DNA of 64,000 bases from Naegleria gruberi (lineage: Eukaryota), in the NCBI GenBank assembly GCA_000004985.1, contig GG738845.1. One strand, given 5' to 3'. This document shows, one piece after another, positions 5,414-50,567 of this stretch. The position numbers and the translations under genes were made by a program. The notes under the pieces are model-generated. The model worked only from the letters and a program-made list of their open reading frames with translations, had not been told where the DNA came from and ran no database searches. The first letter of the stretch is position 1; every line of letters begins with the position of its first letter.

Positions 5414-6712
5414 TTACAAGTTGAAATTTGATTTCTTTTGATACAAACTTCTTGGGCCATAATCTTCCCAATCTTCGTATGTCACAACAGCGTCTTCAAA
5501 GGTTGGTAAACTAGCAATAACAGATCCACCCATCCAAGCACTGAATTGTCTCATTGGATCAGCCAAAACTTTGAAAGGTTTGAAACTCTTTTCATTATTT
5601 TCCAATTCCAATTTAATTCTTTCCTTAAAACCATTGAAGAGAGTATTACCACCTGACAAGACAATTGAATTATAAAAATCTTTTCTGACATCAATAGGAC
5701 TTGCTTTGAATGTATCAAAAACAAGCTCTGCTAATCCAGGAGCATCCTTTCCCATCAAAGATGGATTGAATAATAATTCTGTACAAGCAAATAATTCCTC
5801 ATCAAGAGTAATAATTTGCCCGTCTGGTAATTCATAATCCTTCTTAATCTCTGAATAGGGTTTCTTCTTTTCCTTTTCAAAGTTTTGAGAAACGTAGGCA
5901 AATGATTCCTTAATTTCTCTTACAAAGTGATGTTCTGAAGAGCTAGCAAATCTATAACCCTTTGAGTAGAGCATTCTTTGCAAGTAATGTGTTACATCTC
6001 TTCCTCCAAAATCCAAGTGATTCATAGCATGATCAATGATAAATCCTTCAAATACAGGAACAGTGTGTGAAACACAATCACCAGAATCAATTACCAAACC
6101 AGTTGTTTTACCAACACTGTAGAGGGATAATAATGGTTGTGGCATGTAACACAAACCAGGAATTAAAAACAATTCAAACAAACATTCAGCCATCTTTTCC
6201 TTTTCCTTCTTTGTACTCATTGGATTATCAGTGATGAGTAATAATGTGTCCTCTGGTTCAACATCCAAAACATCCAACAAGGCATACTCAATAAGAAATT
6301 CAATTTGTTCCCAATCTTCAACTTGTCCTTTATCCATCGGATAGAACAATTGATGAGAGTGTCGTTGATCTAAAGCCTTATCACCAACTAGAAATTCCTC
6401 ATTCAAATATTCATCTTCCTCACTGGTTTCTGTAGCTGTCTTTTCATCACCATTTTCATCAACAGTGATTCTACTCTTTCCTAATCTTCTTAATCTCTTT
6501 AAATGAAGTTTTCTATATCGTTCCCGAATAGCACTTTCATCGTCCAGATGTGGCAAACCGACAACATTCTGAAAACAACATGATGGAATTTCTTCACCAG
6601 CAATACCAGCCTTAAACACACCACTTCCAAAATCAATCACAACTGGTGGTGGATTATCATATTCAGATCCTTCATCTGACGATCCTCCGAGTACGTTGTC
6701 ACTAAGTGGCAT
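5414..6712 (-). CDS. Actin-related protein (Arp family; subfamily not assigned)
   Basis: 432-aa ORF with an actin fold and characteristic motifs: VVIDFGSGVFKAG (phosphate-1 loop), LSGGNTLFNGFKERI, and DPMRQFSAWMGGSVIASLPTF...GPRSLYQKK at the C-terminus (compare actin SVWIGGSILASLSTF). It has acidic insertions typical of Arps. Its stop codon lies 1 bp from the RhoGEF stop, in convergent orientation. Confidence 0.8.
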   Translation of the reverse strand: MPLSDNVLGGSSDEGSEYDNPPPVVIDFGSGVFKAGIAGEEIPSCCFQNVVGLPHLDDESAIRERYRKLHLKRLRRLGKSRITVDENGDEKTATETSEEDEYLNEEFLVGDKALDQRHSHQLFYPMDKGQVEDWEQIEFLIEYALLDVLDVEPEDTLLLITDNPMSTKKEKEKMAECLFELFLIPGLCYMPQPLLSLYSVGKTTGLVIDSGDCVSHTVPVFEGFIIDHAMNHLDFGGRDVTHYLQRMLYSKGYRFASSSEHHFVREIKESFAYVSQNFEKEKKKPYSEIKKDYELPDGQIITLDEELFACTELLFNPSLMGKDAPGLAELVFDTFKASPIDVRKDFYNSIVLSGGNTLFNGFKERIKLELENNEKSFKPFKVLADPMRQFSAWMGGSVIASLPTFEDAVVTYEDWEDYGPRSLYQKKSNFNL

Positions 6713-6869
6713 TGGCTAAAATTCCTGAATGTGATGATTGGTTAATTTTTTAATGATAAAGAAAAAAAATTACATAAGTTATTGTTACGTTGCCTTAATG
6801 GGTGACAAAGCCAAGAGAAAAACCTATTGGTTTCTCTTTGAGAACAGAGTCTAATAAAGTAAGTTATAT

Positions 6870-9814
6870 TTATTGGTTTTCTACCTTATAATACATGGAG
6901 TTAGCACCGTCTTGTTGGGCTTCATGATCAAATCTCTTAAATCCAGCAGCATCCTTCTTCTTCTTTCTAACCATAAAGATAGCACCGACAATAACCAACA
7001 CTACAATGATCAAAACTACTGCACCACCAACAGAGCTTCCAATAATGATACCTAGATTGTTGTTGTTGTTAGTGACTGGAGGAGCAGTGTATCTGAATTC
7101 AATGGAGAACAAAGAGCTCTTTCCAGCCTCCTTACCCAAAACTGATACAAACACAGCTTTGTCAACAACAAGCCTTTCCTTTTTGAGGGTTATAACTCTG
7201 TCAACTTCGCCGTTAGTTGTAGATTTCCACGTGTAATTCTTTGGTGATGGATCATTGAACATATCTTGATTGATAAAAACATCAACCTTTCCTTCCAATT
7301 CCTTAATGTGGAGGTAAACATCCTTAGCCTTAGCAGATTCAGTAAATGGAAGCCAGAAGCTATAAACCAATGAATCCATATTTCCGTCTGGGGCAGTTCT
7401 ACCAAGAGTTGGGACATTTTCCAAAACAGTTGCACCAATGTTACTAGCCAATGACATGTGATAAACAGAGTCTTCAATAGCATGAACAGCAATATACCAA
7501 ACTCCACGTTTAAATCCAAGATCAGTTTGCTTAAGCAAAATACTGTTACCATAAGTGTTTTGGTCAGACCAAACATAGTTAGTAGAGTTGGCCTTTTGTC
7601 CATTTGTTGAAATGTACATAACAGTCTTTCCAGAAACAAGTGAGGCAGAAGCAGTGATGATTCTCAAAGCATTAGAAATGTCAACTCTGAAATGAGTAGT
7701 GCTATTCTTTGTGGCGTTGATGAGAATAGAGTCACCATTAGGGAACAAGTTCAAATAATCAGTGGCAACTGAGAGAGTGAATGGAATAGCTCTGGTGCTT
7801 GTATCAGTTGAAACAACACCATAAACAGAAATATAAATTTCTCCTGGAATGGCATCTTCAATGGTCAAAACATCATTACCAATGTTAATGGATCTTCCTT
7901 CATAATCATATCTGTTTGGTGTCTTGACGGAAGTACTGTAGAATATATCAGCTTCATCACCGTCCTTCAGCAAGTGAAGGTTAATATAGACCTTTCCTGA
8001 AGTCTTGATATTAAGAGTATAGTAGGTATAAGCACTTTCCAAAACCGAGCTTGATGTACGCATTCCTTCAGACAGAGTAGAAATAGCTCCAACTTGAGAT
8101 GCTGAAATAGAAAAGTATGAATCAGAATCATAGGCATAGACACCAATGTAGAATGTCTTTCCAGAAGCTTTAGCATCATTAGCTGGGATGTAAACAGTGT
8201 CAACACCAACAATATCAGCATACCACTGATTGCTTTCAACTGATGGATATTGGAGAGTAGTTGAAACATAGATATCAACGTCACCGCTGGATGGCTTGGT
8301 AGTAATGGAGATGGCATTGGATGGATATTTATCAGCAACAAAGGAGAAATATCTGTATGATCCCTTTGGAACCCAATTCAAATAAACTTCTTCACCATCA
8401 TTGAGGGCCATGATTGGTTGGGAAGTGGTGACTTCAATGGAGAACTCACCAGAATCAGCAGTAACAGTAAAGTAAATGAAAGGATGTGGAGATGGAGCAT
8501 CGAACTTTAAGACGCCATTGGTACCAGTAACTGCAACAGCCTTAGAATGGTACTTTGTGGCACTAGGTCTAGAGAATTGAGCTTCATAAACATTAATTGA
8601 GGATCCAGAAACAAGCTTCACAGTGGCAACAATGGTCTTGGTGAGATCGTTATTAGCATACTTGAAAGTATAAGACTTTGTTGTTGCAGTGAATGCCTTT
8701 TGGACAGGTTGGCTGGATGAAAGAACAACTTGATTTGGGTTTTCACCGAATGCCCAAACCTTATAGTTGGTACCATTCATCAAGCCATAAACACCAATGT
8801 AATAATCACCAGCTTCAGCACTTTTAAGAGTATAGGAATCGTCTCCTGACAATGAAACAACAACATCAAATTCAGATGAAGTTGGTTTAGAACCCTTACG
8901 GATATAAACCTTGGTTTCACCTTCACCATTTCTAACTTCGATGGCTTCAATGACAATGTCTTGAACTGATTCAAGACTTCTGAATACAAATGTGTCCAAT
9001 TCATTTTCATTGACAATATCTCTGATAAAGACACCTTCTGGCAAACGCATAGATTCATCATTAACATTAACAATAACACTGTAGACTGATTCAGAGAATG
9101 CAACAACGGTAATGTTCAATTGGGTCAATCCTGGAACAACCTTAATTTTCAAAGCATCGAATCCATAATCTTCAGAAGTCCATGAAACACCATTAGAACC
9201 AGTAACATAAAGATCTGGATCACCAAAAAGACCGTTGACAGAGATTGTTACCAAAGTAGCTTCGCTTGGCAAATTAAAATAGAAGGTATTCTTCTTTCCT
9301 CTTGGAGATTCAGCAAAGATGACTTCATTCTTGTTAATATTAATAATTTCTGTGATCAAAGTGCAACTTTAAGAATTTCATAAAAGAATTGATATTACAT
9401 ACCATTAGATCCCCAAGCAATAAAAGAAAAATCAGCAGATCTTTCTTGAGCAATAATACCAACATAGAATACACCTTGAGCAAATTCAGTGGTATTGTAG
9501 TAAACAATTCTAACATCACCAAAACCATTGGCATCACGATCAAGGCAATCAGCACAAGCAGTTTTTGGATAGTCAACGGTACTGATCCACATATCACAAT
9601 CACCCGAGAGTGAGTTCAAACTAAGGGACACAAAATCTCCTTCAGTCATACCCCAGGTAGTAGTATTAACGAGATAATATTGAATTTCTCCCTTTGAAAG
9701 AGTCTTTGGAAGATTCTTGCCGGCAACGTCATAATTAACAACGACGTTTTGACCAAAAACCAGAGAGCAAAGTAAAAATGTGGTAATTGCAATGATAGCT
9801 AAAGGTACTCTCAT
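6870..9814 (-). CDS. Type I membrane glycoprotein with ~7 repeated pre-peptidase C-terminal (PPC)-like beta-sandwich domains; 2 exons: 9814-9403 and 9349-6870
   Basis: Exon 1 begins MRVPLAIIAITTFLLCSLVFG, a signal peptide. A GTATGT donor at 9402 pairs with a CAG acceptor at 9350, giving a 53-nt intron that keeps the frame into the 829-aa ORF. Repeats carry PPC-like motifs: GDPDLYV, GDVDIYVS, GKTFYIGVYAYDSDSYFSISA and GDYYIGVYGLMNGTNYKV. The C-terminus has a TM helix (LGIIIGSSVGGAVVLIIVVLVIVGAIFMV) followed by a basic stop-transfer sequence. An alternative GTAATA donor 6 nt away is also possible. Confidence 0.65.
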
Positions 9815-10188
9815 TTTTTTTAAGGCTGATATTTTCTTTCTTGCGCTGTGTGTTGATTTAGGGGCGCGTCTTTTGTTAAGGATTGTTGAACAAACAATAA
9901 GCAATCCTGTAAACCAAATATTTTTAGTGGACGACAGAGCTATGGTGCCCTACACTATTATTTTGGTTAGTTGACAATTTCTATTGCCTATCGACCTATG
10001 AAGGTGGTGCCAAATGAGCTAACTTTGTACAGATTTAATTGTTATCAAGTCTTGAAAGTGCACAATGAGAAGACAAGAAGGAGAAGCAACAATAAGAAAC
10101 TCCTCAAAGTGGAATCTTCACTTTTTTGTAACTCTAGGAACATTGAACAAATGGAAGAATTAATTTTCAAAGTCCTGTTCCAAATGTT

Positions 10189-12468
10189 TTATTTGAAATA
10201 CCAAACTTCAACCTTCAAAACAGAGAAGGTTGTTTTTGAACCAACTAGTGGCTCATTGTCAAATGTTGTGCATCTATTACTTGTACCAATACAGAGCTGA
10301 TCATCGATTTGTAAGGCAGGACCATCACCACCAGCACCAAATACCAATCTGTCCTTTCTACCCATTACGAAAAAGTCATTCTTCCTTGACCATTTGTATC
10401 TGGCTTCCACGGGATACATTGAGAATAAGAAGGTATCTGTCGTACCTTCAAAACGATAGGTCTTATCATAGGACTCACCACAGTAAGCTCCAAAAACACA
10501 AACATCTGCTGTCTTTTTCTTCTTTTCTACTGGTGCTTCCTTTTTAGCATTAGGGTCCTTCTTTAAAGACTTTCTTAATGATGTACCTTGCTCCTTATGT
10601 TTTCTAATCATTTCAATGACTTTCATGGCATCTTCTTCATTTTCAGAAATTTGTAATTCTTGTGTGTGAGGTTGATTTTTTTCTTCCTTTTGTTGCTTCT
10701 TGATATCGTCAATGTCACCATCTAATGAGATAGGAACGGCTGATATCAGAAGGATATTAGGGCCAATATCATTACAAATACTATACAATTGTGACAAACT
10801 ATAACCATCTCTAGAGGTGGTGAATCTCAGTGCAAGAGTTCTCAACTTTTGCTTATATGAAAGCCAAGAAAAGAGTAACTCCCATTGAGAGATATCCTTA
10901 ATGATTTCTGATTGTGAGGAAATCTTTGGCTTGACAAAGGTGGACATTTTACCAGTTAATTTGGCAGGATTAATTTCTGCTCTATTCTTTTCATCCAGCT
11001 GTGTAAGATATTTTCTTGAAATACCAAATTTGAAGGCTGTCTTGAAAAATTCATCTTCATCAATACTCAGAGAGGTATTTGTTGTGAGAATTTCTTCCAT
11101 AAAGTTTGGTGAGAGAATCTTCAATAATTTTGGTTCCATAGTTTTCAATACTGCAAATGCTACTCTGTATAAAATCTTGGCACCTTCATTAATGAATGAA
11201 TCCATAGTTCTCAAAACAAAGTTGAATGGTAAATATGGAACAAAGAGTCTAGAGAACCACTTATAGGTAACAGTACTGATATCAAAACCAATCTTTTCAA
11301 AATGACTTCCCAAGTTTGGAATATTCTTCTTAATGATATCACTAAATGATTCAATAAATAAAGCATGTTGCATCTTGTTAGTTCTAAAGTACCATTTGGA
11401 TTCTCTGGACTTTTCAAGCATACAGTGGGCAGTTGCATAAGCTTGTTTTTCATTCATAATGATCAATAATAATTGAACAAGATCTGGTAATGGTGGGCAA
11501 TAATCAATGTCCAAGTGATGATCAGCAAGAACACACAGAATTCTCTTTGCTGATTTGATACCATCAACATTGAGTAAACAAAAATCTCTATCAACTTCCT
11601 TCTTCTTAGTTACAACCTTTGGCTCACCAGTCTCTTCATCAAATTCTTCCTCTTCCTTCTTTGGTTCTTCTTTAACAGCTCCAGTTGGATTATCTACATT
11701 ATAACCTGGTAACTTTGAACCAAATTCAGCAACAATTCTTGGATCTACAGATTCAATAAATTCCTTCTTGTTCTTGTGAACCTCGTTAGTGGTATAGTGA
11801 CCGTATGTCTTTTCGAAGTGATTTTCATAGAAATATGGACTCTGTTTCAAAAGAGATTTTGAGCCAGAAATTCCAGTCCATAATAAACATCTCTTTGACT
11901 GAGGAATTCCAGATCTTATCAACCCTTTTGTGGATTTGGAAACTTCAGAGTGGCTGAGAGGGAATTTTTGAACATCCTTCCAAGCACCTTCCCTTTGTCT
12001 TTTATCGTCAGTGAGTAATGAATCAATTGGTATCTTTTGAATATCTACATAACGTGAAAGATGTAAATCCTCCAATCCATCAGTTTTTTCAATAAAAACA
12101 AAATCATCAGAATTGTCCTTTCTTTCATCATCAAGATCAATGTATGGTCCTTTTTCATCCACTTCATCCCAATTAAACCCACTTCCAACAGCAGAGTCAT
12201 CATCATCAATAAATCCACCAGTCTCCTTTTTACTTTCCACAGAATTTAAAATTGAGTCTTGTTTTTCAATGGCACTTGGTAAAATGTTTTCAATTAAAAG
12301 TTTAACCATAGATTTACCTGTTCTTCCAGGTGGAATTTTCTCACCCTTGTATAATCTTGTATATCCGTTATGGAAAACATCATAGTATCTAATGGTTACA
12401 TTTCTATTCAGTCTTAAAAAGGCTGTTTCTAACCAAGTCTCAGCACCACCAATAGACGAGAATGTCAT
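10189..12468 (-). CDS. TBC (RabGAP) plus TLDc domain protein, TBC1D24-like
   Basis: 759-aa ORF. It has TBC motifs with the Arg finger (RCLLWTGISGSKSLL) and a C-terminal TLDc domain (LRFTTSRDGYSLSQLYSICNDIGPNILLI ... VFGAYCGESYDKTYRFEGTTDTFLFSM ... RLVFGAGGDGPALQIDDQLCIGTSNRCTTFDNEPL). It probably continues upstream into the 12465-13106 ORF; see findings. Confidence 0.8.
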   Translation of the reverse strand: MTFSSIGGAETWLETAFLRLNRNVTIRYYDVFHNGYTRLYKGEKIPPGRTGKSMVKLLIENILPSAIEKQDSILNSVESKKETGGFIDDDDSAVGSGFNWDEVDEKGPYIDLDDERKDNSDDFVFIEKTDGLEDLHLSRYVDIQKIPIDSLLTDDKRQREGAWKDVQKFPLSHSEVSKSTKGLIRSGIPQSKRCLLWTGISGSKSLLKQSPYFYENHFEKTYGHYTTNEVHKNKKEFIESVDPRIVAEFGSKLPGYNVDNPTGAVKEEPKKEEEEFDEETGEPKVVTKKKEVDRDFCLLNVDGIKSAKRILCVLADHHLDIDYCPPLPDLVQLLLIIMNEKQAYATAHCMLEKSRESKWYFRTNKMQHALFIESFSDIIKKNIPNLGSHFEKIGFDISTVTYKWFSRLFVPYLPFNFVLRTMDSFINEGAKILYRVAFAVLKTMEPKLLKILSPNFMEEILTTNTSLSIDEDEFFKTAFKFGISRKYLTQLDEKNRAEINPAKLTGKMSTFVKPKISSQSEIIKDISQWELLFSWLSYKQKLRTLALRFTTSRDGYSLSQLYSICNDIGPNILLISAVPISLDGDIDDIKKQQKEEKNQPHTQELQISENEEDAMKVIEMIRKHKEQGTSLRKSLKKDPNAKKEAPVEKKKKTADVCVFGAYCGESYDKTYRFEGTTDTFLFSMYPVEARYKWSRKNDFFVMGRKDRLVFGAGGDGPALQIDDQLCIGTSNRCTTFDNEPLVGSKTTFSVLKVEVWYFK

Positions 12469-15733: not shown

Positions 15734-16515
15734 TATATAGTAGTGATTATGTTCCGACTGGGGCTGATGAATGTGATGATATTGTTTTCAGTGCAATTTT
15801 TACCGAAGGTGGTAAGGGTTTAAATATATTGACTATATTAATAATAACAATGTTTGGCAAATTACGTACCGAACAATTTTCATTTATTAAGCAAAGAAAC
15901 GCTTTTACGCATAATCAGCGAGGGCATTCCATCGAGAATTTATGAGGATTGGGATCTTCAAAAATTAGAGAAATATATTCTGAAATTGTTTCCAAATGAT
16001 GATTCAGTTCATGGAGAATTTCAAGTCGATCAACATGGCCATAAATATAAATATGCCTTCTTGTCCTCTCTTTAGCAGAAATACGTCTCAATATATTTGA
16101 TTTGGATATGGACTGGATTCAAAGAAACACTGAGAAAAAACCTTATTAAATTCTTGGATATTGAAACTGGTAAATAAACAATTTGTTGTGATCATAAATT
16201 GTTCAAGTTTTTCACTCAACTACACTTGAATTACGAGCGCATTACAGTTCAGAGCTAGTGATCATGTGCTTAATTTAATTTCGTTTGTGCTTTGCATTTT
16301 TCAAACCTAATTTCACTCTTGCCAACTTTTATTTAACGGGTGGCACCAATTGCTTGGAACTTCAGATTATGGTGCTATTGTACACTATTGGGAATTAGTT
16401 GCTTATGGGTTTTGTTGTTTTCCAAGAATTGCTTATTTGCCCAACTTTTACTAAACTTCATATTTATTTTCAATCAACCAATAAATCACAAGAAAAGAAC
16501 ACAGCTGATGTTTTC

Positions 16516-17316
16516 TTAAGGTCTTGCTGAAGTACCTGTACGATTTGGAGTGTCAGATGTCCATTCATTAACCTTTTCCACAACCTTATCTTTCATTTCT
16601 TTTGCTTTTTGTCCAGCAATACTTGCAGCTTCCTTAACTGTCTCTGTAACAGCCTCACCCATAGTTGTTGCCTTCTCTTTGCCTCTTTCCATGGCATCTG
16701 ACATGGTATCTTTTACATCTTCCATCTTGTCTTTGGCTTCTTCCTTATATTGAATAGTCTTGTCTCTGACTTTAGTGGTCATATCTTGTGTCTTGTCCAT
16801 TGCCTCATCTTTCATTTCCTTGGCCTTATTCATGGTTTGTTTGACATTCTTATTCATGTCAGATGCCTTTTCTTTAACATTTTCCTTGATATTCTCCTTG
16901 ACATTTCTACCCGTCTTTTTCAAATCAGCAACTCCTTCTTGTGCCTTTCTCATTGCATCACCAGTTTCTTGAGAGGCATTGAACATGTTGGCTCCTGGAC
17001 TTCTAGGAGTAACATTTTCCGACTTGTCCTTTAAAATCCCACCTGCATCATAAATTCCAGGGTTTGCAGATCCAACTTTTTCACTAGTGTTCAAGCCAGA
17101 GTTTGGTTTGTTAAAATAGGATTCTCTGGACATTTCCTCTTCATCGATGGAAACTGGCTTGATAGTTACCTGAGGTTTCTTGGAGGTATTCAATTTAGAT
17201 TCATTCTTCTCCAATGTTGAATCAATGTTGGTGTTCTTATTGATGAGACATGTGGAAAAGGAGCATCTATTGTAACGAGCCAAATACTTGGTGTTTTGTA
17301 AAACTATTCTTTTCAT
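16516..17316 (-). CDS. LEA-like (late-embryogenesis-abundant group 3-type) repeat protein, possible mitochondrial presequence
   Basis: 266-aa ORF. The C-terminal half is built of charged 11-mer-like repeats (KEKASDMNKNVKQTMNKAKEMKDEAMDKTQDMTTKVRDKTIQYKEEAKDKMEDVKD). The N-terminus is basic. Confidence 0.55.
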   Translation of the reverse strand: MKRIVLQNTKYLARYNRCSFSTCLINKNTNIDSTLEKNESKLNTSKKPQVTIKPVSIDEEEMSRESYFNKPNSGLNTSEKVGSANPGIYDAGGILKDKSENVTPRSPGANMFNASQETGDAMRKAQEGVADLKKTGRNVKENIKENVKEKASDMNKNVKQTMNKAKEMKDEAMDKTQDMTTKVRDKTIQYKEEAKDKMEDVKDTMSDAMERGKEKATTMGEAVTETVKEAASIAGQKAKEMKDKVVEKVNEWTSDTPNRTGTSARP

Positions 17317-17502
17317 TTTCTTTCTGACTGTATAATAAATATATTCAAATCATGATTATCTTTTTAAATCTAATTTGGTTTCTTTCTATTAATCACTTAT
17401 CCTTTTTAGTTTAGCTTGAAACCAATAGAATCTACTTCTGTACAGTTAACAAATTTATCAATACTAATTTGTTAATTTGACAAATATGGCCGAGTTTCCC
17501 AA

Positions 17503-18357
17503 TTAAATATCAGCATTGAGTCCTCCAAACATTTTCTCTTCCATCTTTTTCAACTTTTTCAATTCCTTTCTTTCCTTCTTTTCTTCCTTCTTTCTTTTCT
17601 TTTCCTCTTTTGAAAGTTTCTTCTTTGGTTCTTCATTTTCCTTCTTTTCAAGTTGAGTTGGTGATTTCACAACAGCTGAGCCTTCATCCTCTCCATCCTC
17701 TTCTTCATCACTAGAATCGTGTCTTCCATTTGATGGTGATCCCTCAAACATGGTCATCATTAGATACTTGTGAAGCCAATTAGGATCTCTCTTTTTCATG
17801 GCATCATGATACAAAGTCCACTCAAAATCATCATTAGCCTTCTTTACTTTCTTATAAATCATTCCATCCTTTTCCATAGTTTCATATTTCGGAACATTTT
17901 CCTTCTTATCTTGTTGATATCTGTTATTGAACCGACCAGTAGTAGATGATGAATTTCTTCCTCCATTCCTGCCAGAATTTTGTTGTTCTTCCGGATCTTC
18001 GACAATCTTCTTATAATAATTAGGAGCATGATCGACACATATTATTCTTCCACCCAATTCAATGCCATTCAAATTATCAATGGCCAATATTGTCGAGCGA
18101 ACATCTTCATAGGCAATAAAACAAAATCCCTTACTGGTCAATTCCTGTTCCTCACGAACCAAATCAATATCAACAATTTCTCCATATTGAGAGAAAACTG
18201 AGAGTAAATCACCTTCCGTCAATCGGAAATCCAAGCCTCCAATGTAGATGTAGGCTGTTCGATTTTTTTCCTGATGATGCCATGAAGATGGAGTGTTTGT
18301 ATAGCCCAGAGAAAGTTCCTTCTGATTCAACTCGTTGATTTGTTTTGCTCTTTTCAT
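17503..18357 (-). CDS. RRM-containing splicing factor, RBMX2/Snu17(Ist3)-like
   Basis: 284-aa ORF. It has one RRM whose RNP2 is IYIGGL and whose RNP1 is KGFCFIAYE, followed by a Lys/Glu-rich tail. This architecture matches RBMX2. Confidence 0.75.
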   Translation of the reverse strand: MKRAKQINELNQKELSLGYTNTPSSWHHQEKNRTAYIYIGGLDFRLTEGDLLSVFSQYGEIVDIDLVREEQELTSKGFCFIAYEDVRSTILAIDNLNGIELGGRIICVDHAPNYYKKIVEDPEEQQNSGRNGGRNSSSTTGRFNNRYQQDKKENVPKYETMEKDGMIYKKVKKANDDFEWTLYHDAMKKRDPNWLHKYLMMTMFEGSPSNGRHDSSDEEEDGEDEGSAVVKSPTQLEKKENEEPKKKLSKEEKKRKKEEKKERKELKKLKKMEEKMFGGLNADI

Positions 18358-18645
18358 TTTTTTTCTAAAGAATAAAAGAATATAATTCTTGTTGAATATG
18401 ACATGAAAACCTCTATTTACTCTGACTTGTAAATATGATGTTTCAAAAGTTATTACAAGGCATCGACACTACAATTCAACAAGTATATTCCTGATACTAA
18501 TTTTGACATCTTCTACTAGTCCTCTCAATTCAGAAAATTTAGTATTAATCTTAAAATCATTAAAGTTCTCTGACTTAGTATAGAGTTTATATATTATACA
18601 AAGGTTGATTAATGATATCCTCAATCATTATTTATTATTATTATT

Positions 18646-20279
18646 CTTGCTAATTAATCTACGCATGTAGTAGAATAAACTCAGTATTTCAGAAACGACA
18701 ATTTATGTCGTTGTCAAAACGCATCCGGGCTCCCTTTAAACAATCCTAATACCAATCAATTAACACCTGAGAATGATAAACCTACTTGGGAGGAAGATTT
18801 TAATAATCATTTCGAACCATGGTCACCTACTAGATTCGAAGGTGGTGAAATTCAATTCCAATTTAAAGGAACAGAGTCTGCACTTTATTCTAGAATTAGT
18901 AATGATGAGACAAATCTCTATCAATTAAATGATCTTCCAAAGTTCGAACAATTTTGCAAACGAACATACTCTAGAATCAGAACACAACTCATGTCCAATT
19001 GTCAGGCCCATATTTCCATCACAGGCATGGTAAGAAGTGGAAAAACCACAATAGCCAGAGAAATATTTCCTTTTTTCTACACTAGAGAAACTAAATATAC
19101 CTCCTATAAAATATATATAAATTAACGATAATTAATTGGATTTACAATGGTAATACTAAGCCAATAGTTGAATTTTTAAACAAAAACCCTTCAACCATGC
19201 ACTACATTATATTTAACGAAATACAGCTATGTGATACAGATGTTTTATCAATCCTTAAAAAGATTTTCAAAATACCTCAATTGATAGGGAGAAACTTATT
19301 AAGTATTTGGATAGGAAATACACAAGCAGTGTTATTGAAAAGTTGAAAATGATTCCTTCGAATGCCTATTCTTTTAATGATAACTGTTTTACTATAACAT
19401 ATTATAGGATGGAAGTTTAAAAATTTAAAAGAATTAAAAGTATATTGCAACTACAGAGAAAAAAAGATTATAAATATAGTGAAGATTTTTGATAGAGATT
19501 TTGCTAAAACTAGATCTCAGTAGATTAATTAAAGAACCAACTTAAAACCAAGTTTTATCAATACCTTAGTCGATAATGAAATTAATTGAAAATTAAGAAG
19601 CTAAATAAATTTTCAAAAGGTTATATATTTGAAATTTAGAAAAGCTTAACAAAGTAATATAAAATACAAAGACCATTAATTTTTAAAAATCTTCTTAAGT
19701 TGGTTTATCATTTTTAAGAATCTAAAGAAAATGAATTTAAAGAAAGAACAAACTTTGTAAAAATATAACAAAAACATTGTTATTGGGTCATACTATTCCA
19801 CCATTCTTTTTTAATATCAATTAGGTCTACCTTAGAGATTCATAATTCATATCGAGATTGATATGAAATATTCATTTTTTGTAAATGGAAAGTGAATCCC
19901 TTATAATATTATTATATACACCAAGCTATTTTGGGAGACTTTTGAAACCTTTTTTGTTGAAGTTTGTTGTATTGGGAAAAACAAACTCACCAAATTGTTA
20001 AAAAAAGTCAAACAGAACACAAAAAAACATTAATTACAATATTCATAATTTTATTAGCAAAAAAAGGAAATTTATTGTATCCTACAGGACTTTCATTTTA
20101 GGTTTTTGTTTGGATTATTGGTACATAATTTGAACACTTGATGTATTTTGGAGTTTATAATATCTCCTTGATATTGAATGTAATGTCATTATGATCAATT
20201 AAAAATCAATATTCTTCCAAAAAAATTCTGAAATACTAAGTTTATTCTACTATACGCGTGTACATTAATTGCTATTAGC
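18646..20279. mobile_element. 1.63-kb segment bounded by ~50-bp imperfect terminal inverted repeats (L 18646-18694, R 20226-20279); putative non-autonomous TIR element or local inverted duplication
   Basis: The reverse complement of CTTGCTAATTAATCTACGCATGTAGTAGAATAAACTCAGTATTTCAGAA (left) matches TTCTGAAATACTAAGTTTATTCTACTATACGCGTGTACATTAATTGCTATTAGC (right) at about 45 of 52 positions. The interior has no long ORF but holds coding-like fragments. Confidence 0.35.
18672..19127 (+). pseudogene. Decayed P-loop NTPase reading frame (Walker A GMVRSGKTT; NB-ARC/STAND-like or nucleotide-kinase-like) inside the TIR-bounded segment
   Basis: A stop-free frame of ~150 codons translates ...FEPWSPTRFEGGEIQFQFKGTESALYSRISNDETNLYQLNDLPKFEQFCKRTYSRIRTQLMSNCQAHISITGMVRSGKTTIAREIF, then stops. 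It has no start codon, and no GT donor lies between the P-loop and the stop. A second coding-like segment follows in another frame at ~19148-19340 (GNTKPIVEFLNKNPSTMHYIIFNEIQLCDTDVLSILKKIF). Confidence 0.35.
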
Positions 20280-21179
20280 TTAAAAAACCATCTGATCAAT
20301 TCAATAAACCATAAAACCAAATCTGAAATATCTATTCTAACAATTTATTATATGATTTGTGTGTTTAGTTAATTTTTAAATTTAATGCAGAGAATAAATT
20401 ATAGAGTTTTCGTCTTGTTCTTGATATCCACCACCCAACAATTTCTTTAGATAATTGGATATCCAAATAAAAATAACATTTTACTAGATCTGAAATTTCT
20501 ATAGAAGTCTTGTTTTGTATTGTTATTTTGTGTTAAGGTGATAAGTAAATTTTTCAATAATGACAGACCTAATAAACACCTTCAAATTTTACATTATTTT
20601 TCATCAAGAAAACATCTTGAAAAAATGATTTAAGAAAGAAAAATCCAATCCATCATTAATGGTTGGAATATTCAAAACAATCTGATAAGTTGTAGCTATC
20701 ATTGAAACATCTTAATGGTATAAATGGTCCGCATTGAATTTAATAAAGTGCTTTTTATTAAGGTTTGAAAGTTACTAAGATCAAATAAATTATCTGGCAC
20801 CATAAAGTAAAAAAAATGAAACTACCCTCACAACCACACAAAATATTCAATAGGATTTATAATAATAATGAAAGAAATAATTTAATAGATGGCACAGAAA
20901 TACAAGTCCATTATTTTACTAAATTATTTTATAACAATACAAATATTAATTTACCACTAAACAAAACAACATTATTAGGAAAAAAAGGAAATATAGTTAA
21001 CTCCTTTGTTAAATTAATTCATCAATACTTTATTCGGAACCTAATTGAAGATTCTAAGTTGTATTGTTTTCTAGTAATTGTTATATATTGTACTTTGAAT
21101 ATCGTTGTTCAATTCATCGATAATCAATTTCAATTCATTTCTACAAACAACAACTTCTGATGAATTGACAGATAATCCA

Positions 21180-21740
21180 TCATAACCATGAATGCATTTG
21201 CCCTTGTAAACTTCATTCAATTCTAACGTCTTGTTTAGCATTACAAATTTCTTATTTTTGTAATCTAAAATCTTATCCTTGTAAAAAAGTCATGAAATGT
21301 TTTGGACTTCTTCTTCCAAAATTCAAATAACAAAGATTAGAATATTTCTGCATTCCTATACAAGTTATGTTTTCCCAAATAAATAGGTGTGTTCTCTAGA
21401 TAACGAAAATTCATTCCAATTTCCAACTCTCAATGCATAATAATAACCTCTAAGGGCTGGTAAAATTGTCTCAAACTTCTGTTGAATTGATATATAATTC
21501 ATCATAGCCGTGAATGTATTTTCCTTTGTATACTTCATTCAACTCTAATGTTTTGTTTAACATAATAAACTTCTTATTTTTGTAATCAATTAATCTTTTG
21601 TGTTTTTTAGAATTCTCCAAATACAATTTCTCCAATTTCTTCGAAGAACATTATAAAATTTTCTGTAAAAACATCATGAAATGTTTTAGACTTTTTCTTC
21701 CAAAAATTCAAATAATAAAGATTAACGATCACAGAAACCC
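21180..21740. repeat. Two tandem ~300-bp diverged repeat copies (21180-21300 region and 21480-21740 region) carrying minus-strand ORF fragments
   Basis: The copies share TGAATTGA(C/T)A...CATCATA(A/G)CC(A/G)TGAATG(C/T)ATTT(G/T)CC(C/T)TTGTA(A/T)ACTTCATTCAA(T/C)TCTAA(C/T)GT(C/T)TTGTTTA(G/A)CAT(T/A)A(C/T)AAA(T/C)TTCTTATTTTTGTAATC ... GTCATGAAATGTTTT(G/A)GACTT(C/T)TTCTTCCAAAATTC. On the minus strand they translate to DYKNKKF(I/V)MLNKTLELNEVYKGK(Y/C)IHGYD... and NFWKKKSKTFHD(V/F)F... Confidence 0.5.
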
Positions 21741-21934
21741 AAAAAAATCAACCAGTATTTTATAAATCAAAACACACTAACAAGAACCACTGATCCAACC
21801 ATAACAACACATTTAATGAAACCGAAGTACTTTAATACAATATTATACTAAGAAAACTCCAACACACCACTCTCAAAATTAAAAACTCAATCTTCCTTAT
21901 TGCAGCCATATGATTTGAAACCACGAATAAAATT

Positions 21935-22025
21935 TGATGAGTGTGGGATTTGAACCCACGCCCTTGCGGAACACGGTATTAATCATACCTTAACGTGTCG
22001 TCTTAGACCACTCGACCAACTCACC
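21935..22025 (-). tRNA. tRNA-Leu (anticodon AAG) with an 11-nt intron 3' of position 37
   Basis: Sense strand: GGTGAGTTGGTCGAGTGGTCTAAGACGACACGTTAAGG[TATGATTAATA]CCGTGTTCCGCAAGGGCGTGGGTTCAAATCCCACACTCATCA. The acceptor stem is GGTGAGT/ACTCATC with discriminator A73. The D-arm (GTC/GAC, loop GAGTGGTCTAA) is type II. The anticodon stem ACACG/CGTGT carries loop TTAAGG..C. It has a long variable arm and a GTGGG-TTCAAAT-CCCAC T-arm. Four T's follow immediately, a Pol III terminator. Confidence 0.8.
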
Positions 22026-22281
22026 ATCTCTTAAATTTTTTAATATTACTATTATGTTGATTTTTGAGGAAATACTTCCAAATTATTTAATCCCTTGTGT
22101 CATGACGTTTTTGATTAACATTTAATCCATTCCATTGCTATCAGAAATACCTTTAAAATATCTGTCGTATTTAAACGTGTTGAAGCTCTTCTAGTTTAAA
22201 GCCAAACATACTTGAAACAGACCACACTCATTTTAATTATTCGTGCTTCGCACTTTCGAATTCATTTTTAAAAAAATAACC

Positions 22282-23234
22282 ATGTCCACAAATAAGACCA
22301 CATCATCATCTGATGGAGAAGAACAGAGGAACAAGCCTGTTGCACGTTTCAGCAAGGAGGATTTACCAATACTTAAGACCTTCATGGAATCTGCGTTGAA
22401 AATCTACAAGACAGAAAGAGAATGTTACAAAGCATTTGGGAAAAAGTACGGCTATTCCGAAAGTCAAGTTAAACGTAACTACACTGAAAAAATTCGGCCA
22501 TTACTTACTTACTGATAAAGATGATTTGAAAGAAAAATTTAAAAAACGAGCAGCCAATGATGACGACGTTGAAATGGAACGGATTTTTGATGAGAAAGAA
22601 AAGAAGAAACAAAAAATTGAACAACAAGTTGAACGTGCTAAAGAAATTGATGCTGAAATTGAGTATCAATCCGATTCATCTGAAGATTCTTTATTTTGCA
22701 CTCCTTCAAAAACACATATTACAAAAGCGTTGAATCACAAGAATGAATCAGATGTTTACTTTTCATCATTTTGAGAGTAGAACACATCATGTTTTTGCTG
22801 TAAGATATCCAAATCATTTTCTGTTCGAATTTAAAGGTGTAAGTCGTAAAGAAAAGGAAATTTTGATTGATGTGAGTGTTTCTACTTCTTTAAAAGCAAG
22901 TGATATTCAATCAATTTTTGATTCAAACAACGTTAATATTGAAAAGTTAGAAGAAAAGACTGACATATCTACTTCAGTTTACACTTTGAAACAAAAGTTG
23001 CCTAAAAGTGCAGACGCACAGCTCATCAAACAAGGGATTGGATTGCTGCCAGATTCTGAAGACAGAGTGTTCCTACTTTATTGTGAGAAGAAAGTGGATA
23101 TTTTAAAACCATCAAGTGCGAACTCTTTCGCGTTCTTTGCCTCTCCTAAACCAAAAAAACCTCAACTCGAAAGCACTCAGCAAACTCAAGATGCAAGTAC
23201 AGACAATCAAAGTACGAGAGATGCAGATGAATAA
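22282..23234 (+). CDS. Hypothetical acidic/Lys-rich protein whose reading frame is interrupted twice (three consecutive ORFs in frames 1, 2, 3)
   Basis: ORFs 22243-22515, 22436-22774 and 22743-23234 overlap by 80 and 32 nt and step +1 in frame each time. The first junction coincides with an A6 run (22487-22492), where removing one A fuses ORF1 and ORF2. No intron signals fit, because the overlap regions are GC-normal and a candidate 75-nt GT..AG is a multiple of 3. This is either sequencing indels or a pseudogene. Confidence 0.4.
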
Positions 23235-23444
23235 ATTTGCTATCCCACTAGGTGTCAATTACTAAGTTAACTTTTGTACCAAAACATTACTTCAATTAAT
23301 GAAAAAGAACAAATTGGAGCATGACACTTTTAGTTTACAAAATTTATTCTTTTTTGACCAAGGTCATTATTATGCTACAATAATTGATATTTCGATAGCA
23401 AATCCGCAAATATACTATATTATCACTCAACTTTACACAAAAAA

Positions 23445-24674
23445 TTAGAATCTCATTGCAGGGTTGTATCCTGGTTGTGGATATCCTCTACCCATCATTG
23501 GTGGTCCATTCATTCCCATACCATTGTTGAGTGGTGGAGGTCCATTCATACCCATTCCCATTCCATTATTAAGTGGTGGTGGACCATTCATCATTCCCAT
23601 TCCATTATTAAATCCTTGTGGTGGATATCCTCTACCCATCATTGGTGGAGGCCCATTCATTCCCATTCCATTATTAAGTGGTGGAGGTCCGTTCATACCC
23701 ATTCCCATTCCATTGTTGAGTGGTGGAGGATATCCCATACCTCTTCCCATTCCATTGTTAAGTGGTGGTGGACCATTCATTCCCATTCCATTATTAAGTG
23801 GTGGAGGATAATTCATTCCTCTTCCCATTCCGTTGTTGTTGAGTGGAGGAGGACCACCTGGAATTGTGAATGGTTGTTGTTGTTGTTGTTGTTGTGGAGG
23901 TTGATTACTTCTGGCAGTAGGTTGGAGAGGAGAATCAAATAAATTCAAAACGCTATCCTTGCTAGATACTTGTGTTCTTTGTCCTGTTTGAGTGTTATCC
24001 ATAATAATGAATTCGGATAAATCATTTTGTTTTGGAGTATCTTCAAAAGTAATCAATGATGGAGTATTAGATTGTTGAACTGGTGGTTGCTTGACTTGTT
24101 GAACTGGTCTTGTTTGCTTTTGTGGAGGAGGATTAGCAATGTCATCTTGAGATGATACTGAACGTAAATTTTGTTGTCTGTTTTGTTGGAAATTTTGTGT
24201 AGAGATTGATTGTTTGAGTGGAGTGGTTGGTGTAGTGGCAGGTGATGAATCCTCACTATTCAAATCCAAATTTCCGTATTCTCTAGCATATGCATCATTA
24301 TCAATCCAAAGTTTTCTCTCATATTTTGCTCTGATAAACTTTTCCACTGTTGCAGTATCGGTATCTGCTGTTGGTTTTTCTCTGTCCAATTTGGCTTCGA
24401 AAATGGTATTAGCCTTCTCATTACCAAATAATTCAACCATTCTTCTTTGTTCGTCATTCCATGAATCAAGACCAACACTTCTCACCTTGGAAATATGTGT
24501 ACCTAATTTTCTATGCAAACCAGCACATCTTATACAAAAGAATACACCTTGAGTAGTACTTGCCCATTGTGGTCCTCTTGCGTTACAATCAGCACAAACC
24601 TTGTTTGATGGTATCTTTAAAAGATCATTGACAAGTTTCTTATTCCTTGAATTTTGTTCTTGTTTGCTGGACAT
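23445..24674 (-). CDS. ArfGAP-domain protein with C-terminal Gly/Met/Pro/Asn-rich tandem repeats
   Basis: The N-terminus has the ArfGAP C4 zinc finger (CADCNARGPQWASTTQGVFFCIRCAGLHRKLGTHISKVRSV) and the catalytic Arg. The C-terminal 150 aa are repeats of PPPLNNGMG(R/M)GMN(Y/G). Confidence 0.8.
   Translation of the reverse strand: MSSKQEQNSRNKKLVNDLLKIPSNKVCADCNARGPQWASTTQGVFFCIRCAGLHRKLGTHISKVRSVGLDSWNDEQRRMVELFGNEKANTIFEAKLDREKPTADTDTATVEKFIRAKYERKLWIDNDAYAREYGNLDLNSEDSSPATTPTTPLKQSISTQNFQQNRQQNLRSVSSQDDIANPPPQKQTRPVQQVKQPPVQQSNTPSLITFEDTPKQNDLSEFIIMDNTQTGQRTQVSSKDSVLNLFDSPLQPTARSNQPPQQQQQQQPFTIPGGPPPLNNNGMGRGMNYPPPLNNGMGMNGPPPLNNGMGRGMGYPPPLNNGMGMGMNGPPPLNNGMGMNGPPPMMGRGYPPQGFNNGMGMMNGPPPLNNGMGMGMNGPPPLNNGMGMNGPPMMGRGYPQPGYNPAMRF
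23464..23890. repeat. Coding tandem repeat (~45-60 nt units, ~8 copies) plus (TTG)7 tract; encodes the PPPLNNGMG repeats of the ArfGAP
   Basis: Repeated GGTGGAGGTCCATTCATACCCATTCC(CATTCC)ATTGTTGAGT-like units are visible. The + strand ORFs 23464-23811 and 23475-23942 are antisense artefacts of this repeat. Confidence 0.6.
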
Positions 24675-29017: not shown

Positions 29018-29182
29018 TTTTTTTGAATTTCAATTTAAAAATGAAAAATGTTAAATTGATGAGAATTTTGCAACTTTCTTGTGAGGTTAATTAGAAAATA
29101 CGAAATCTAAGTCATACCATGTACTTGAATAGATTAATTGTTTCCACACCACTTCTAACATGATAAGGTAAGCAACAAAATT

Positions 29183-29273
29183 TGATGAGTGTGGGATTTG
29201 AACCCACGCCCTTGCGGAACACGGTATTAATCATACCTTAACGTGTCGTCTTAGACCACTCGACCAACTCACC
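29183..29273 (-). tRNA. tRNA-Leu (AAG) with 11-nt intron, identical copy 2
   Basis: The 91-nt sequence is identical to the copy at 21935-22025. A TTTT terminator follows, and the same ~45-bp conserved 5' flank is present. Confidence 0.8.
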
Positions 29274-29607
29274 ATCTGTAAATTTTTTAATATTACCATT
29301 ATGTTGATTTTTGAAGAAATTTTAAATTAAGCATTAATTGAAATTTGTAAAGTGAGAGAAGGAAATTTAGTAAAAGATACAATTTATTAGTTATTAACAC
29401 AATTCCTTGAGTAAATTTTCTTGGAATCATTTGATAATGGTTCACGATTATCATGTTGGTTGGATTAGAGTTTCTTCTTCTTTTCGTACTGAAATCTTTT
29501 CACCTAATGACCTTTCGCGTTTAAGAGTGCCATTAACATGTTATTCTAGTTTCCAAACAGAGCTATCGGTATTTCTATAGTAAACTACGGGTTTTTCCAT
29601 TGAGGTA

Positions 29608-30649
29608 TTATTGAATATGATTTGTTTCTTCTTGAAATATATCGTTTTCAATTGATCTCAAATCAAGAATGGTTTGATTTTCATACTTTTGATTGAAATT
29701 TCTCCAATGAGAATTCATCATTGTTGATAAATATTTGGAACTCGAAAAATTATTTGAAATGGTAAAGTCTTTCTCTTCAAATCGAATGATAACTTGCTCT
29801 ATTAGTGGTATTTCATTTTCATTTGTTGTCAAATTATTGACATCGCAAGTCTTGAATGGTTCAATTCCAAATTCATCATATGGTTCAATAAATTCAAAAT
29901 CATTCACTACTTTTGACAGCCAATATAGTGCTAATTTCAAATCCATTTCAACACCCTCTCCTTTTTTGTAACAACAACCAAGATTAAATTGACCATCCTT
30001 GCACCCTTTTTCAGCAGCTTTGAAATACCACTCAAATGCTTTAACATCGTCTTGTTCTACTCCTATACCATCATCAAAGCAAACGCCAATATTTAATTGA
30101 GCTCTTGCATAACCCTTTTCAGCAGCTCTTAAATACCATTCAAATGCTTTAACATCGTCTTGCTCAACTCCTGCACCTTTTCTATAAATACATCCAATCA
30201 CAAACTGTGCATCTGTATCACCCTTTTCAGCAGCTTTTAAATACCATTCAAATGCTTTAACATAGTCTTGTTGAACGCCTTTCCCCTCCTCAAAAAATGC
30301 TCCAACATTAAATTGAGCAGTTGTATCACCCTTTTCAGCAGCTTTTAAAGTCCATCGTTCTACACAAGTGAAAAGACAAACTGCATAATATCGATACCAA
30401 CACAGCAACACAGGACCACTGATGGAGGAATTTATACAATTTTTTATTAGAAGAATAGGAAATCAATGCTGTTTGTTGATTTCTCTTCCAACCTTGATTG
30501 TATGGTGCATCTAAAATGACATAAATATTGGTTAAACCACAAAGTTCAAGACTGTCATTAATCGGATCTCTGGATGTGTAAGCGAGGATGAAGATAATCT
30601 TCTGATCATTTCCAGAAGGTATTGTTAACATCATGTTGTGGTGTAGCAC
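29608..30649 (-). CDS. Sel1-like repeat (SLR/TPR-like) protein; reading frame shifts once near an A6/T6 homopolymer (~30440-30445)
   Basis: Six or more Sel1 repeats (KAFEWYLKAAEKGDTDAQFVIGCIYRKGAGVEQD) lie in ORF 29608-30411. The N-terminal part (MLTIPSGNDQKIIFILAYTSRDPINDSLELCGLTNIYVILDAPYNQGWKRNQQ) is in ORF 30335-30649, one frame off. Both frames are open across a ~120-nt overlap that contains a T6 run. Confidence 0.55.
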
Positions 30650-42686: not shown

Positions 42687-45600
42687 TTAAACATCTTCCC
42701 ATTCGCCCATTATTTCATCATCTTCAAATTCATCTGCAATTTCAAGACCACTTGTTGTATTTCCTAAAAAGAATACAATTTGAAATGCATACTTGTTAAA
42801 GTATTTTCCACTTTGTTCTATTATTGTTGGTTTGTAAAATGATGGATTCAGCAAATCACAAAATTCCTCTGAATCAAAATAAAGCGACGTTCCACTTTTA
42901 CGTTCTTGATAATTCTTCAATTCAATTCTATTATACTTTCTAATTTGAATACTTTCTCTATCAAATGATTCATTTGCAATTAAATATTTAATTTTAAAAA
43001 TGTCAGTGGATTTAAACACTTCTAATAGATCAATAGAAAATAATCCACTTTTTCTTGATATAGGTGTCAGGTAGATATTAATATTATTTCCAAATACGTT
43101 AAAGAGATTGGAGGAGAAATTGTAATCCTCCAATACTTCAAGTGGAGTGAGAATAGAAATATTATGATGACTCATTGGTATATTCTTGGATAATTGTCTA
43201 TCAATCCATGGATGTACTCCATAGAGTGGTGATGCTGAACTCATTGAGAGAGTATTATTTAAAGATGGTGATTTCTCCAATAACTTCATACATACAACAA
43301 TCTTGTAGTCATAAGCATCATTTTTGAATTCTGTGGAGAGAATGGAAAAATGATTTTGTGAAATATTATCCAAGGCATGCTGAAATTTGTGGGAGTGTAC
43401 AGAGTAATGATTTGAATAGTAATAAGGGAAAAAAGCAACATCAACTCTCAAATATTCCAATACTGAGGAAGAATCATCTTCATGTTGTGTCGATTGTAAA
43501 TATAATGAACATGTTGCCAATGTATTATCTTCTCCACTATGAATAGTCATAAACCAATTAAATCCAAATGCTTTGAAAGTTTCAGAATGAACCTTTTTGT
43601 ACATTTCCCATTTGATTGGTTTTGAAATTTCAATACATGTTGTGAATGTATTCTCTCCTTTCCAACAATCAGGTATTGGAGTATATTGTGGAATGACATT
43701 ATTTATACCAGTACCACCCTCGCCAGTGTATAGAAAATTATTGTTATATGCCTTAGCAACCATCAACCCAAAAGGTCTACTCAAAGTAGAGAACCTTGTA
43801 TTACTTGTAAACTGAGAGATACTGTCATGTGAAAATGATTGATGTAGATTAATCTTATTTTCTAGACATTTCTTCATAAATTTATCAACATATTTTTTAA
43901 CACCAGATAAATCTAATAAATCCTCAGCAATTCTTGCAAAATGCTTAGCAATAATGTGTGGAACATTAAAATCCAATAAAATACTCAATGCTAAAAAGGT
44001 ATCCACTGTTGAATTCAATGCAATGAATACTGGAAGTGCCTTAGATAGAGAATAGATTAATGCTTCTCTATCAAATGCGAAATTACCATTCTCAATCTTG
44101 TTGGCGAAATATTTTAACAATTTTGTAAAGGACGATCCGTTCATATAGTCAAAGCTAAATACTGATTGTAAAGTATAGCATAATATAGTGAATCTATATT
44201 CATCTTTGATGGGTAAATCCAACAAGCGACTCATATATAAATTCAATTCCACTAATTTTCTCTCCTTCAATAGATTTGGAATAAGAGTTGCATTCAATTC
44301 TTCAAAGAGATGATTGGCACTCTCTACTTTGATACTCTGTAAATTTTCAGTAATAGTTTTGAGAGCACGTTCCATATTGAATTTTCTTTCCTTAATCTTG
44401 GTACAGAAAAAGTGAAAATCTCTTTCATGTTCCAACAATGAGATTTCATTGATATCCCTGAATTGAGGACAATCCACTAAAAGTAATAATGTTAATTGTT
44501 TCATGGATTTAAATGTAGAGAGTAATTGATTGGTGAGTTGAGAACAACCGTTAAAATAGATGGATTCAATAGGAGAATCATTAGTACATAATTCATTCAC
44601 AATTTCATCTTGAATGGATGATTGTTTCAATTTTAAAACTCTTAATTGAGTTAATGATTGAATATTCTTAACAAATCCCATTTCAGATCCTGAAGGATTT
44701 TCAAAAGATGAAATTGACAAGGTATATATTCTAAGTGGAAGTATCAAATGATTTGGAAATGGAACTGACATGTCTAAAATATTCAGTGTCTCTAGAGTTG
44801 TAAACTCTAATAGACTGATGGCATGATCATATACCATTGATAAATTTCTAAGTTTCTTCTTATTGGTTAGTTTCTTTACAATTTCAGATGTGATCAAATT
44901 ACCAGTGATTGATTCAAGATGAGGTAAAGGAACAATCACCTTTTCTAAATTGTGATTTTCTATCGATGCATCCAAGTGAAGTGATTTAACATTTTGACAT
45001 TTGGAAAGGAATTCAAAATTCATTTGATTTTCAAATCCAGTCACTGAAAGTTCTTTGAGGGACCTTCCAACAAGTACTGGAAGTAAAATGCCTGCTCCTT
45101 CCACTAAATCACAGGATACACTTTCTAAACGATTAAAACTTGAGGTGTCGGAAAGTTTCTTAATTAAATCTTTTGAAAATGAAACTCTTGTCATGAATAA
45201 TAGCTTTAGTTTGTTTAAATTTGGTAAAGAACAAATTGCCTCTAATAATGAATTATTATTTTTGGTAGATTCTATTCCAACAATAAATAAACTCAAATCT
45301 GTCAAATGTTCAACAATTTTTCCAAAAGCATTATTTGGAACAGTTATATCTGCTCTAACAAATAAAGAAAGTGATTTCAACTTGAGAGGTTCCTTAAAAG
45401 TAGTGAAAATTGAATTAGTTAACTGAACATCAGGTATCTCTGGATACATGAAATGGAACGAAGAAAGTTTAGGTAAATTTTTCATTAAAAATTGTGCATT
45501 CTTTTCTGAAACACCTCTCAAACGTAATTCCATTAAATTTGGGCATTGGTTTGGAATGTTTTTTAAAACTGCTGTTGGTAATATGTAATCAACTACTAAC

Positions 45601-50132: not shown

Positions 50133-50567
50133 TGTTGTTTTTTTAATACTTTCTCCAGGTGGCCAAGGTTTTCAGCAGCTTTTATTGAGTTTGCCTGAGT
50201 TGTGAATTCTGTGCGTCTTTCAACAACAATCAATATCCAATCATTTTAGTTCCGAAATCATTGTAAATTACATTCTCATATTTCAAATGTCATTGGGGTT
50301 ATTGTTTCTATTGGTAAGTTATGGTTGAGTTTGGTACTTTCAAATTTACAATGAATCTTGCCGTGCAGCAACTTTGAAATTAACAAGAACTGATGCTCTA
50401 ATGTTGTGGCTGATGAATCAGTTGTTTAAAGGCTTAATAACTTCAATGTCTCTTCAAATGTCTCCTTAATTAATGAAAATTTGATTCCTTGTATTTGGAT
50501 TATGATATGTGGTGACAATAATGACAATAATGAAAAAAAATTTCATGAGTGTGGGACTGATAAAATT

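Follow-up and report, generated by a model that had tools for sequence, protein, structure and literature searches.

The window, the whole stretch of DNA analysed here, is 64 kb long and comes from Naegleria gruberi. It has a GC content of about 33% and is a gene-dense eukaryotic region, encoding RabGAP-TLDc, mitochondrial carrier, actin-like and MFS proteins together with other genes. Three of its open reading frames, all on the minus strand, are identical in sequence to proteins of N. gruberi NEG-M: 17503-18357 is the RRM protein EFC50848, 23445-24674 is the ArfGAP EFC50849, and 42687-46169 is EFC50855. The standard genetic code applies; an alternative (ciliate) code was considered and is ruled out by the long standard-code ORFs and by the exact N. 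gruberi protein matches. The consecutively numbered EFC50848 and EFC50849 flank a 5.1-kb stretch (18358-23444), and in it lies a segment bounded by inverted repeats that encloses the remains of a P-loop NTPase gene. A preliminary description of this DNA had noted that the interior of the segment holds no long ORF, and indeed no ORF of more than 123 aa is found between 18358 and 22282. The features of the segment and its surroundings are as follows, with P0004 and P0005 denoting the two protein relatives introduced below.

18649-18651, no strand: GCT directly outside the left arm, as read from the sequence; it pairs with GCT at 20271-20273
18652-18694, plus strand: left arm of the inverted repeat, 43 nt
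18679-19122, plus strand: main stop-free frame of 148 codons, with its stop at 19123-19125
18705-19520 (about), plus strand: pseudogene of a Naegleria-restricted AAA_16-like P-loop NTPase, by homology to P0005
18772-18807, plus strand, against 19679-19712: interior inverted match, score 37, reached in 2 of 300 shuffles
19024-19047, plus strand: intact Walker A motif GMVRSGKT in the main frame (GMVRSGKTT), conserved in P0004 and P0005
19146-19343, plus strand: second piece, in another frame, with its stop at 19344-19346
19200-19220, plus strand: Walker-B-like strand HYIIFNE (HYIIFNEIQ) in the second piece
19343-19417, plus strand: third piece, with its stop at 19418-19420
19421-19520, plus strand: last piece, with its stop at about 19521
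19521-20225, no strand: anonymous AT-rich interior of about 0.7 kb, 23% GC
20226-20270, minus strand: right arm of the inverted repeat, 45 nt
21934-22026, minus strand: tRNA gene within the 18358-23444 stretch, one of three identical copies in the window

The surroundings of the segment contain several other repeated or broken sequences. The three identical tRNA genes (21934-22026, 29182-29274 and 50567-50659, all on the minus strand) are 93 nt long and receive no name from ARAGORN; read by eye, they are type-II tRNA-Leu(AAG) genes with an 11-nt intron at 37/38. Their 5' flanks are 95-97% identical over about 55 nt, so that the repeated unit measures about 150 bp. Between the element and the nearest tRNA gene there is a tandem duplication (21152-21340 / 21474-21724, period about 320 bp, 84-90% identity), the minus strand of which carries coding-like fragments (..DYKNKKF.MLNKTLELNEVYKGK.IHGYD.. 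and ..FWKKKSKTFHD..) without a Pfam match. This duplication is probably another decayed gene, and the whole 18.4-22.2 kb interval therefore looks like a small gene graveyard. Also between EFC50848 and EFC50849, a coding region on the plus strand (22283-23234), which begins MSTNKTTSSSDGEEQRNKP..., runs through three overlapping frames (ORFs 22243-22515, 22436-22774 and 22743-23234), and represents either a gene with two short introns or another frameshifted gene. Internal tandem repeats at about 77% identity occur in coding regions at 23468-23853 and 29948-30355, the former lying inside the ArfGAP gene and encoding the PPLNNGMG-type low-complexity repeats of the ArfGAP C-terminus. In addition, a metagenomic contig from a second N. 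gruberi strain (ENA ERZ929261, k127_98179; our locus L001) corresponds to window positions 16479-18594 at 99.2% identity, with 10 mismatches and 4 gaps, and ends 57 nt before the left arm; the strain is that of ERR1078381. The end of this contig could reflect an assembly break at a repeat, a polymorphism, or simply low coverage. Look-ups with the small ORFs in and near the element, and with the neighbouring ORFs, found no further contigs. A chimeric query aimed at orthologues of the neighbouring genes in N. gruberi and N. lovaniensis brought up mainly generic ArfGAPs, with P0006 and P0007 as the useful exceptions.

The inverted repeat is non-random and far beyond chance. Its gapped alignment (18652-18694 / 20226-20270) has 45 columns, 86.7% identity and one 2-nt indel; within it, an ungapped match of 34 nt (18661-18694 / 20226-20259) is 91% identical, and the inner 27 nt (18668-18694 / 20226-20252) agree at 26 of 27 positions. 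The pair scores 52.7 bits, a value reached in none of 200 dinucleotide-preserving shuffles of the 5.1-kb intergenic region, for which the best non-overlapping inverted pair per shuffle averaged 28.7 bits (sd 2.1, maximum 38.3). Moreover, it is the sole inverted pair at E<=1e-5 when the 64-kb window is compared with itself by BLAST, and the 21-nt core of the arm occurs at just these two sites in the window even when 3 mismatches are allowed. Similarity between the arms ends abruptly at both the inner and the outer edges. The preliminary description had placed inverted repeats of about 50 bp and about 85% identity around a segment at 18646-20279; the repeats and their degree of identity hold, but the arms are closer to 45 bp and the true limits of the segment are 18652-20270, a length of 1.62 kb.

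A decayed gene makes up the left half of the interior. It can be aligned with P0005 in colinear fashion across three reading frames of the window, all on the plus strand, in four alignment blocks:

P0005 residues 89-142: window 18928-19089, plus strand
P0005 residues 201-255: window 19173-19340, plus strand
P0005 residues 257-275: window 19343-19399, plus strand
P0005 residues 341-358: window 19458-19511, plus strand

The stop-free frame of about 150 codons ending in a P-loop, and the second coding-like fragment in another frame, which had been noticed by inspection of the DNA, correspond to the first two pieces listed above, one with the Walker A motif and the other with the Walker-B-like strand. 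The view that the interior is a decayed gene is likewise upheld, as the homology crosses frames within contiguous homologous residues. A three-way alignment of the window copy with P0004 and P0005 displays the common N-terminal motifs FN..F.P, SALY and NNFPE, the P-loop, the Walker-B strand and RN.LSIW.G.TQ. The Walker A sequence of the window copy, GMVRSGKT, conforms to GxxxxGK[ST]. Its Walker B sequence, YIIFNE, departs from hhhhD[DE] in having Asn where P0005 has Asp (FVVCDD), a substitution that is consistent with loss of function. There are at least four frame breaks in addition to internal deletions, and the stretch corresponding to P0005 residues 276-340 has lost about 40 residues. Upstream there is a single ATG (18705), and it lies in a different frame from the main one. 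Frameshift-aware alignment recovered nothing of the family's C-terminal third (P0005 residues 359-535) on either strand, the scores of 28 lying below shuffle means of about 33. To judge from these several frameshifts, stops and deletions, and from the loss of the C-terminal third, the assignment as a pseudogene is robust. The remaining interior (19521-20225) yielded no Pfam domain or transposase remnant in six frames and no match elsewhere in the window or in the fetched Naegleria loci. The segment is an inert relic, nothing in which is expected to function now.

Assigning the NTPase to a family by a profile search of the frame had been proposed in the preliminary description. A HMMER scan of the joined fragments against 1.84 billion protein cluster representatives gives exactly two relatives, both from Naegleria, each with 30% identity. 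One (P0004) is the N. gruberi protein EFC50151 (NAEGRDRAFT_61937), a gene model of 197 aa from a different scaffold, found at E = 3.9e-9; the other (P0005) is N. lovaniensis C9374_011505, a protein of 535 aa (E = 2.6e-7). A word-based homology search gave no match with the window fragment, and P0005 retrieved P0005 alone. Neither the window fragment nor P0005 reaches a Pfam gathering threshold, so there is no formal Pfam family membership: for the window fragment AAA_14 scores 24.0 against a 27-bit cutoff (E = 4e-5) and NB-ARC 18.1 against 23.5 (E = 0.0017), while for P0005 AAA_16 scores 32.1 against 32.6 bits and AAA_22 21.9 against 27, with NB-ARC and TniB also below threshold. Searches of PDB sequences, PADLOC and NCBIfam returned P-loop-level noise only (SLFN11, mad8, IstB). 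A full-length AlphaFold model built from the three-sequence alignment was unusable (pLDDT 38.5). The NTPase domain modelled alone has a pLDDT of 59, and its best Foldseek matches are AAA+/STAND proteins (PCH-2, NRC2, ORC, Sir3, CED-4, Apaf-1) at E>=0.006 and TM<=0.47, none of them at E<=0.001.

Our reading of these results is that the family belongs to the AAA+/STAND type of P-loop NTPases, that its N- and C-terminal regions are lineage-specific, and that it is not a nucleotide kinase. It resembles the AAA_16/AAA_22/NB-ARC NTPases in that its Walker A motif lies about 110-125 residues from the N-terminus, that a Walker B strand of the form hhhhDD follows about 85 residues later, and that its C-terminal half is predicted to be all-helical. 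It differs from them in that the N-terminal domain of about 110 residues and the C-terminal half match nothing, and in that it is found in Naegleria alone. Of the two classes suggested at the outset from the context of the P-loop, STAND/NB-ARC NTPase and nucleotide kinase, the sub-threshold Pfam scores and the weak Foldseek matches keep the former and drop the latter. The accompanying argument, that a P-loop so deep in the frame speaks against a kinase with an N-terminal P-loop, agrees with the likeness to AAA_16/AAA_22/NB-ARC proteins in both kinds of comparison.

The N. lovaniensis gene (locus L002, 10001-11652) has one 44-nt intron and neighbours at distances of 170 nt and 77 nt. It is the sole intact member of the family and looks like a resident gene. 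No TIRs surround it or the block of DNA in which it sits, and it has no similarity to the arms in the window. The block itself is about 5.3 kb long (L002, about 6480-11778) and contains four genes, for an LRR protein, an OTU protease, an unknown 333-aa protein and the NTPase. It is missing from an otherwise colinear locus (L003, 5317-5664) in another Naegleria assembly, Logan SRR29240419, at about 80% nucleotide identity, and its edges carry no convincing terminal repeats. Since only three family members were found and the block is present in one genome and absent from another, the family is small and fast-evolving, and has been gained or lost between species. It was not found in viral contigs or in JGI metagenome contigs. 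A viral origin was also considered and has no support, the arm core being absent from the viral collection and the family from the viral contigs.

We tentatively favour the interpretation that the segment is a transposon relic, in which the dead NTPase gene copy would be enclosed by the terminal inverted repeats of an element resembling a non-autonomous DNA transposon, itself now decayed. The arms would then be the ends of the transposon, recognised by a transposase supplied from another locus, the gene copy would have been either carried as cargo or transduplicated, and arms and gene copy would subsequently have decayed neutrally for about the same time. The terminal inverted repeats themselves argue for this interpretation, with their 43- and 45-nt arms, 86.7% identity and a score that none of the 200 shuffles reaches. 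So do their sharp edges, with nothing aligning just inside or outside the arms, whereas a long duplication that decays uniformly looks otherwise. The make-up of the interior, where a dead gene is accompanied by 0.7 kb of nondescript AT-rich sequence, fits as well, and so does the patchy presence and absence of the family, as seen in the N. lovaniensis block that its sister Naegleria assembly lacks. The stop of the second-strain contig 57 nt before the left arm counts weakly on the same side.

Candidate target-site duplications at the ends also favour a transposon, although their identity is ambiguous. In one parse (A), TIRs of 43 and 45 bp are flanked by GCT and GCT as a candidate 3-bp duplication. 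In another (B), a 27-bp TIR (26/27) lies between TACGCATG (18660-18667) and TACGCGTG (20253-20260), an 8-bp pair that agrees at 7 of 8 positions; TTAA offers a further possible parse of the ends. The ambiguity stems from two palindromes, ACGCGT and AATTAATT, in the outer part of the arm: parses A and B are inseparable from a single copy, and parse B is confounded by ACGCGT. Other observations tell against a transposon. Neither the arms nor the element as a whole recurs elsewhere in the 64-kb window, with 3 mismatches allowed for the arm core, and the interior shows no transposase remnant in a six-frame Pfam search and no shared subterminal k-mers or motifs. The arm core was not found in metagenome, viral or prokaryote collections, a weak negative as Naegleria DNA is probably missing from them. 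Repeats of this kind are also lacking around the intact homologue in N. lovaniensis, which contains an intron and lies close to the host genes on either side. Naegleria genomes are, moreover, transposon-poor, at 0.28% in one survey; for N. lovaniensis, DNA transposons amount to 1.25%. A set of 447 hypermethylated regions carrying H3K9me3/H3K27me3 marks has been reported for N. gruberi (PMC12344493).

A local inverted duplication is a nearly as likely alternative, though likewise short of an even chance; the preliminary description had put forward both readings. The 5' flank of the gene and its first 35 or so codons, or more, would have been copied in inverted orientation downstream, tail-to-tail, and both copies would have died without any mobility. 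On this account the left arm may be the NTPase gene's own promoter and 5'UTR, indels having erased most of the second copy and left two islands. A start codon just 10 nt interior to the left arm (the ATG at 18705) is indeed more naturally expected of an arm that is itself the 5' flank of the gene. The second island is the interior match between 18772-18807 and 19679-19712, which is in frame with a 3-nt deletion (NDKPTWEEDF against NDKPT*-EDF), fits the duplication better than a transposon, and points to an inverted copy of part of the 5' end of the gene in the right half. That neither other arm copies in the 64-kb window nor a transposase in the six frames of the interior were found, and that the N. 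lovaniensis homologue is an ordinary resident gene, points the same way. However, the 77 nt between the two left islands are unmatched in the right 513 nt (score 15, compared with a shuffle mean of 17.6), nothing aligns beyond the inner island, and the minus strand of the right half shows no discernible homology to the family. Two islands of about 85% identity with total loss between them would need an extra deletion and an extra insertion, and uniform decay would not predict sharp 45-bp arms. By a rough estimate, the indels accumulated in the pseudogene are in line with the roughly 13% by which the arms diverge; under either model the repeat would then have formed at about the time when the gene died.

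It is unlikely that pseudogene and repeat are unrelated, the arms being independent copies of a short dispersed sequence (solo repeat fragments or a shared regulatory motif) that happen to flank a dying gene. Nothing at this single locus links arms and interior in function, and other remnants litter the surrounding 5 kb, the 21152-21340 / 21474-21724 duplication being an example. Yet a third copy of the arm is absent from the 64 kb with 3 mismatches allowed, and the arms form the strongest inverted pair of the window while lying just 1.5 kb apart, a coincidence that we put at about 5% by our own estimate. Still less probable is that the segment is one decayed member of an undescribed Naegleria family of small TIR-bounded mobile cassettes, in which a fast-evolving STAND-like NTPase, an immune-receptor-type gene, is the cargo and spreads by transposition; if true, this would also explain the patchy presence and absence of the NTPase family between Naegleria species. 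Finally, an intact, spliced and expressed gene missed by annotation is very improbable: the intron of the N. lovaniensis homologue does mean that the family has introns, but here the frame changes inside contiguous homologous residues (...GNTQAVLLKS / VIEKLKMIPSNAY against GSTQIQLFKILEKVPSNGF in P0005), which introns cannot explain, the interval from P-loop to Walker B is 30 residues shorter than in P0005, too short to accommodate GT..AG introns, Asn takes the place of the catalytic Walker-B Asp, and the C-terminal third is absent.

Taken by itself, the segment is an ordinary genomic relic of little importance. The gain is one unannotated pseudogene and one possible transposon relic in a transposon-poor genome. 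Added to these is a tiny, Naegleria-only family of AAA_16-like NTPases (EFC50151, C9374_011505 and the dead copy in the window) with signs of rapid gain and loss. Were the arms to prove multi-copy genome-wide, they would offer a way into a DNA-transposon family of Heterolobosea that is as yet uncharacterised.

If the segment is indeed a transposon relic, it can be compared with three groups of known mobile elements. The proximity of a tRNA gene had been taken, in the preliminary description, as the kind of niche in which mobile elements accumulate in dictyostelids. A tRNA gene does lie about 1.6 kb away (1663 nt from the right arm to 21934-22026), but the host is N. gruberi, a heterolobosean and not an amoebozoan, so the dictyostelid tRNA-targeting argument is inapplicable, and at such a distance the proximity carries no weight. 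Integration targeted to tRNA genes is a trait of dictyostelid and yeast retroelements, and the dictyostelid elements insert tens to about 100 bp from the tRNA gene. All that the segment has in common with TRE5, TRE3 and DGLT-A is a tRNA gene in its intergenic region; these elements are retroelements and have no TIRs, whereas here the tRNA gene is 1.66 kb off and the right half contains no reverse-transcriptase or other Pfam domain. Under parse B, with its 27-bp TIR (26/27) flanked by an 8-bp direct repeat (7/8), the segment would resemble hAT- or P-like elements. The consensus of hAT TIRs is YARNG, of which the TIR in the window, starting TAGTA, matches 4 of 5 positions with a misfit at position 5. 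In addition, the 8-mer overlaps the palindrome ACGCGT and could equally well be part of a longer TIR, and no remnant of a hAT transposase or dimerisation domain occurs in six frames. The third comparison is with Pack-MULE, Pack-CACTA and hAT transduplicates. Such families are recognised by their numerous copies with common termini and by well-defined target-site duplications, features not evident at the single locus described here; the nearest paralogue of the gene in the window is about 30% identical, with no evident parent gene, and the gene starts 10 nt from the arm instead of being an internal fragment. In their overall architecture they are nevertheless similar to the segment described here, with short TIRs around a cellular-type gene copy that no longer functions, a lack of transposase, and a size of 1-2 kb.
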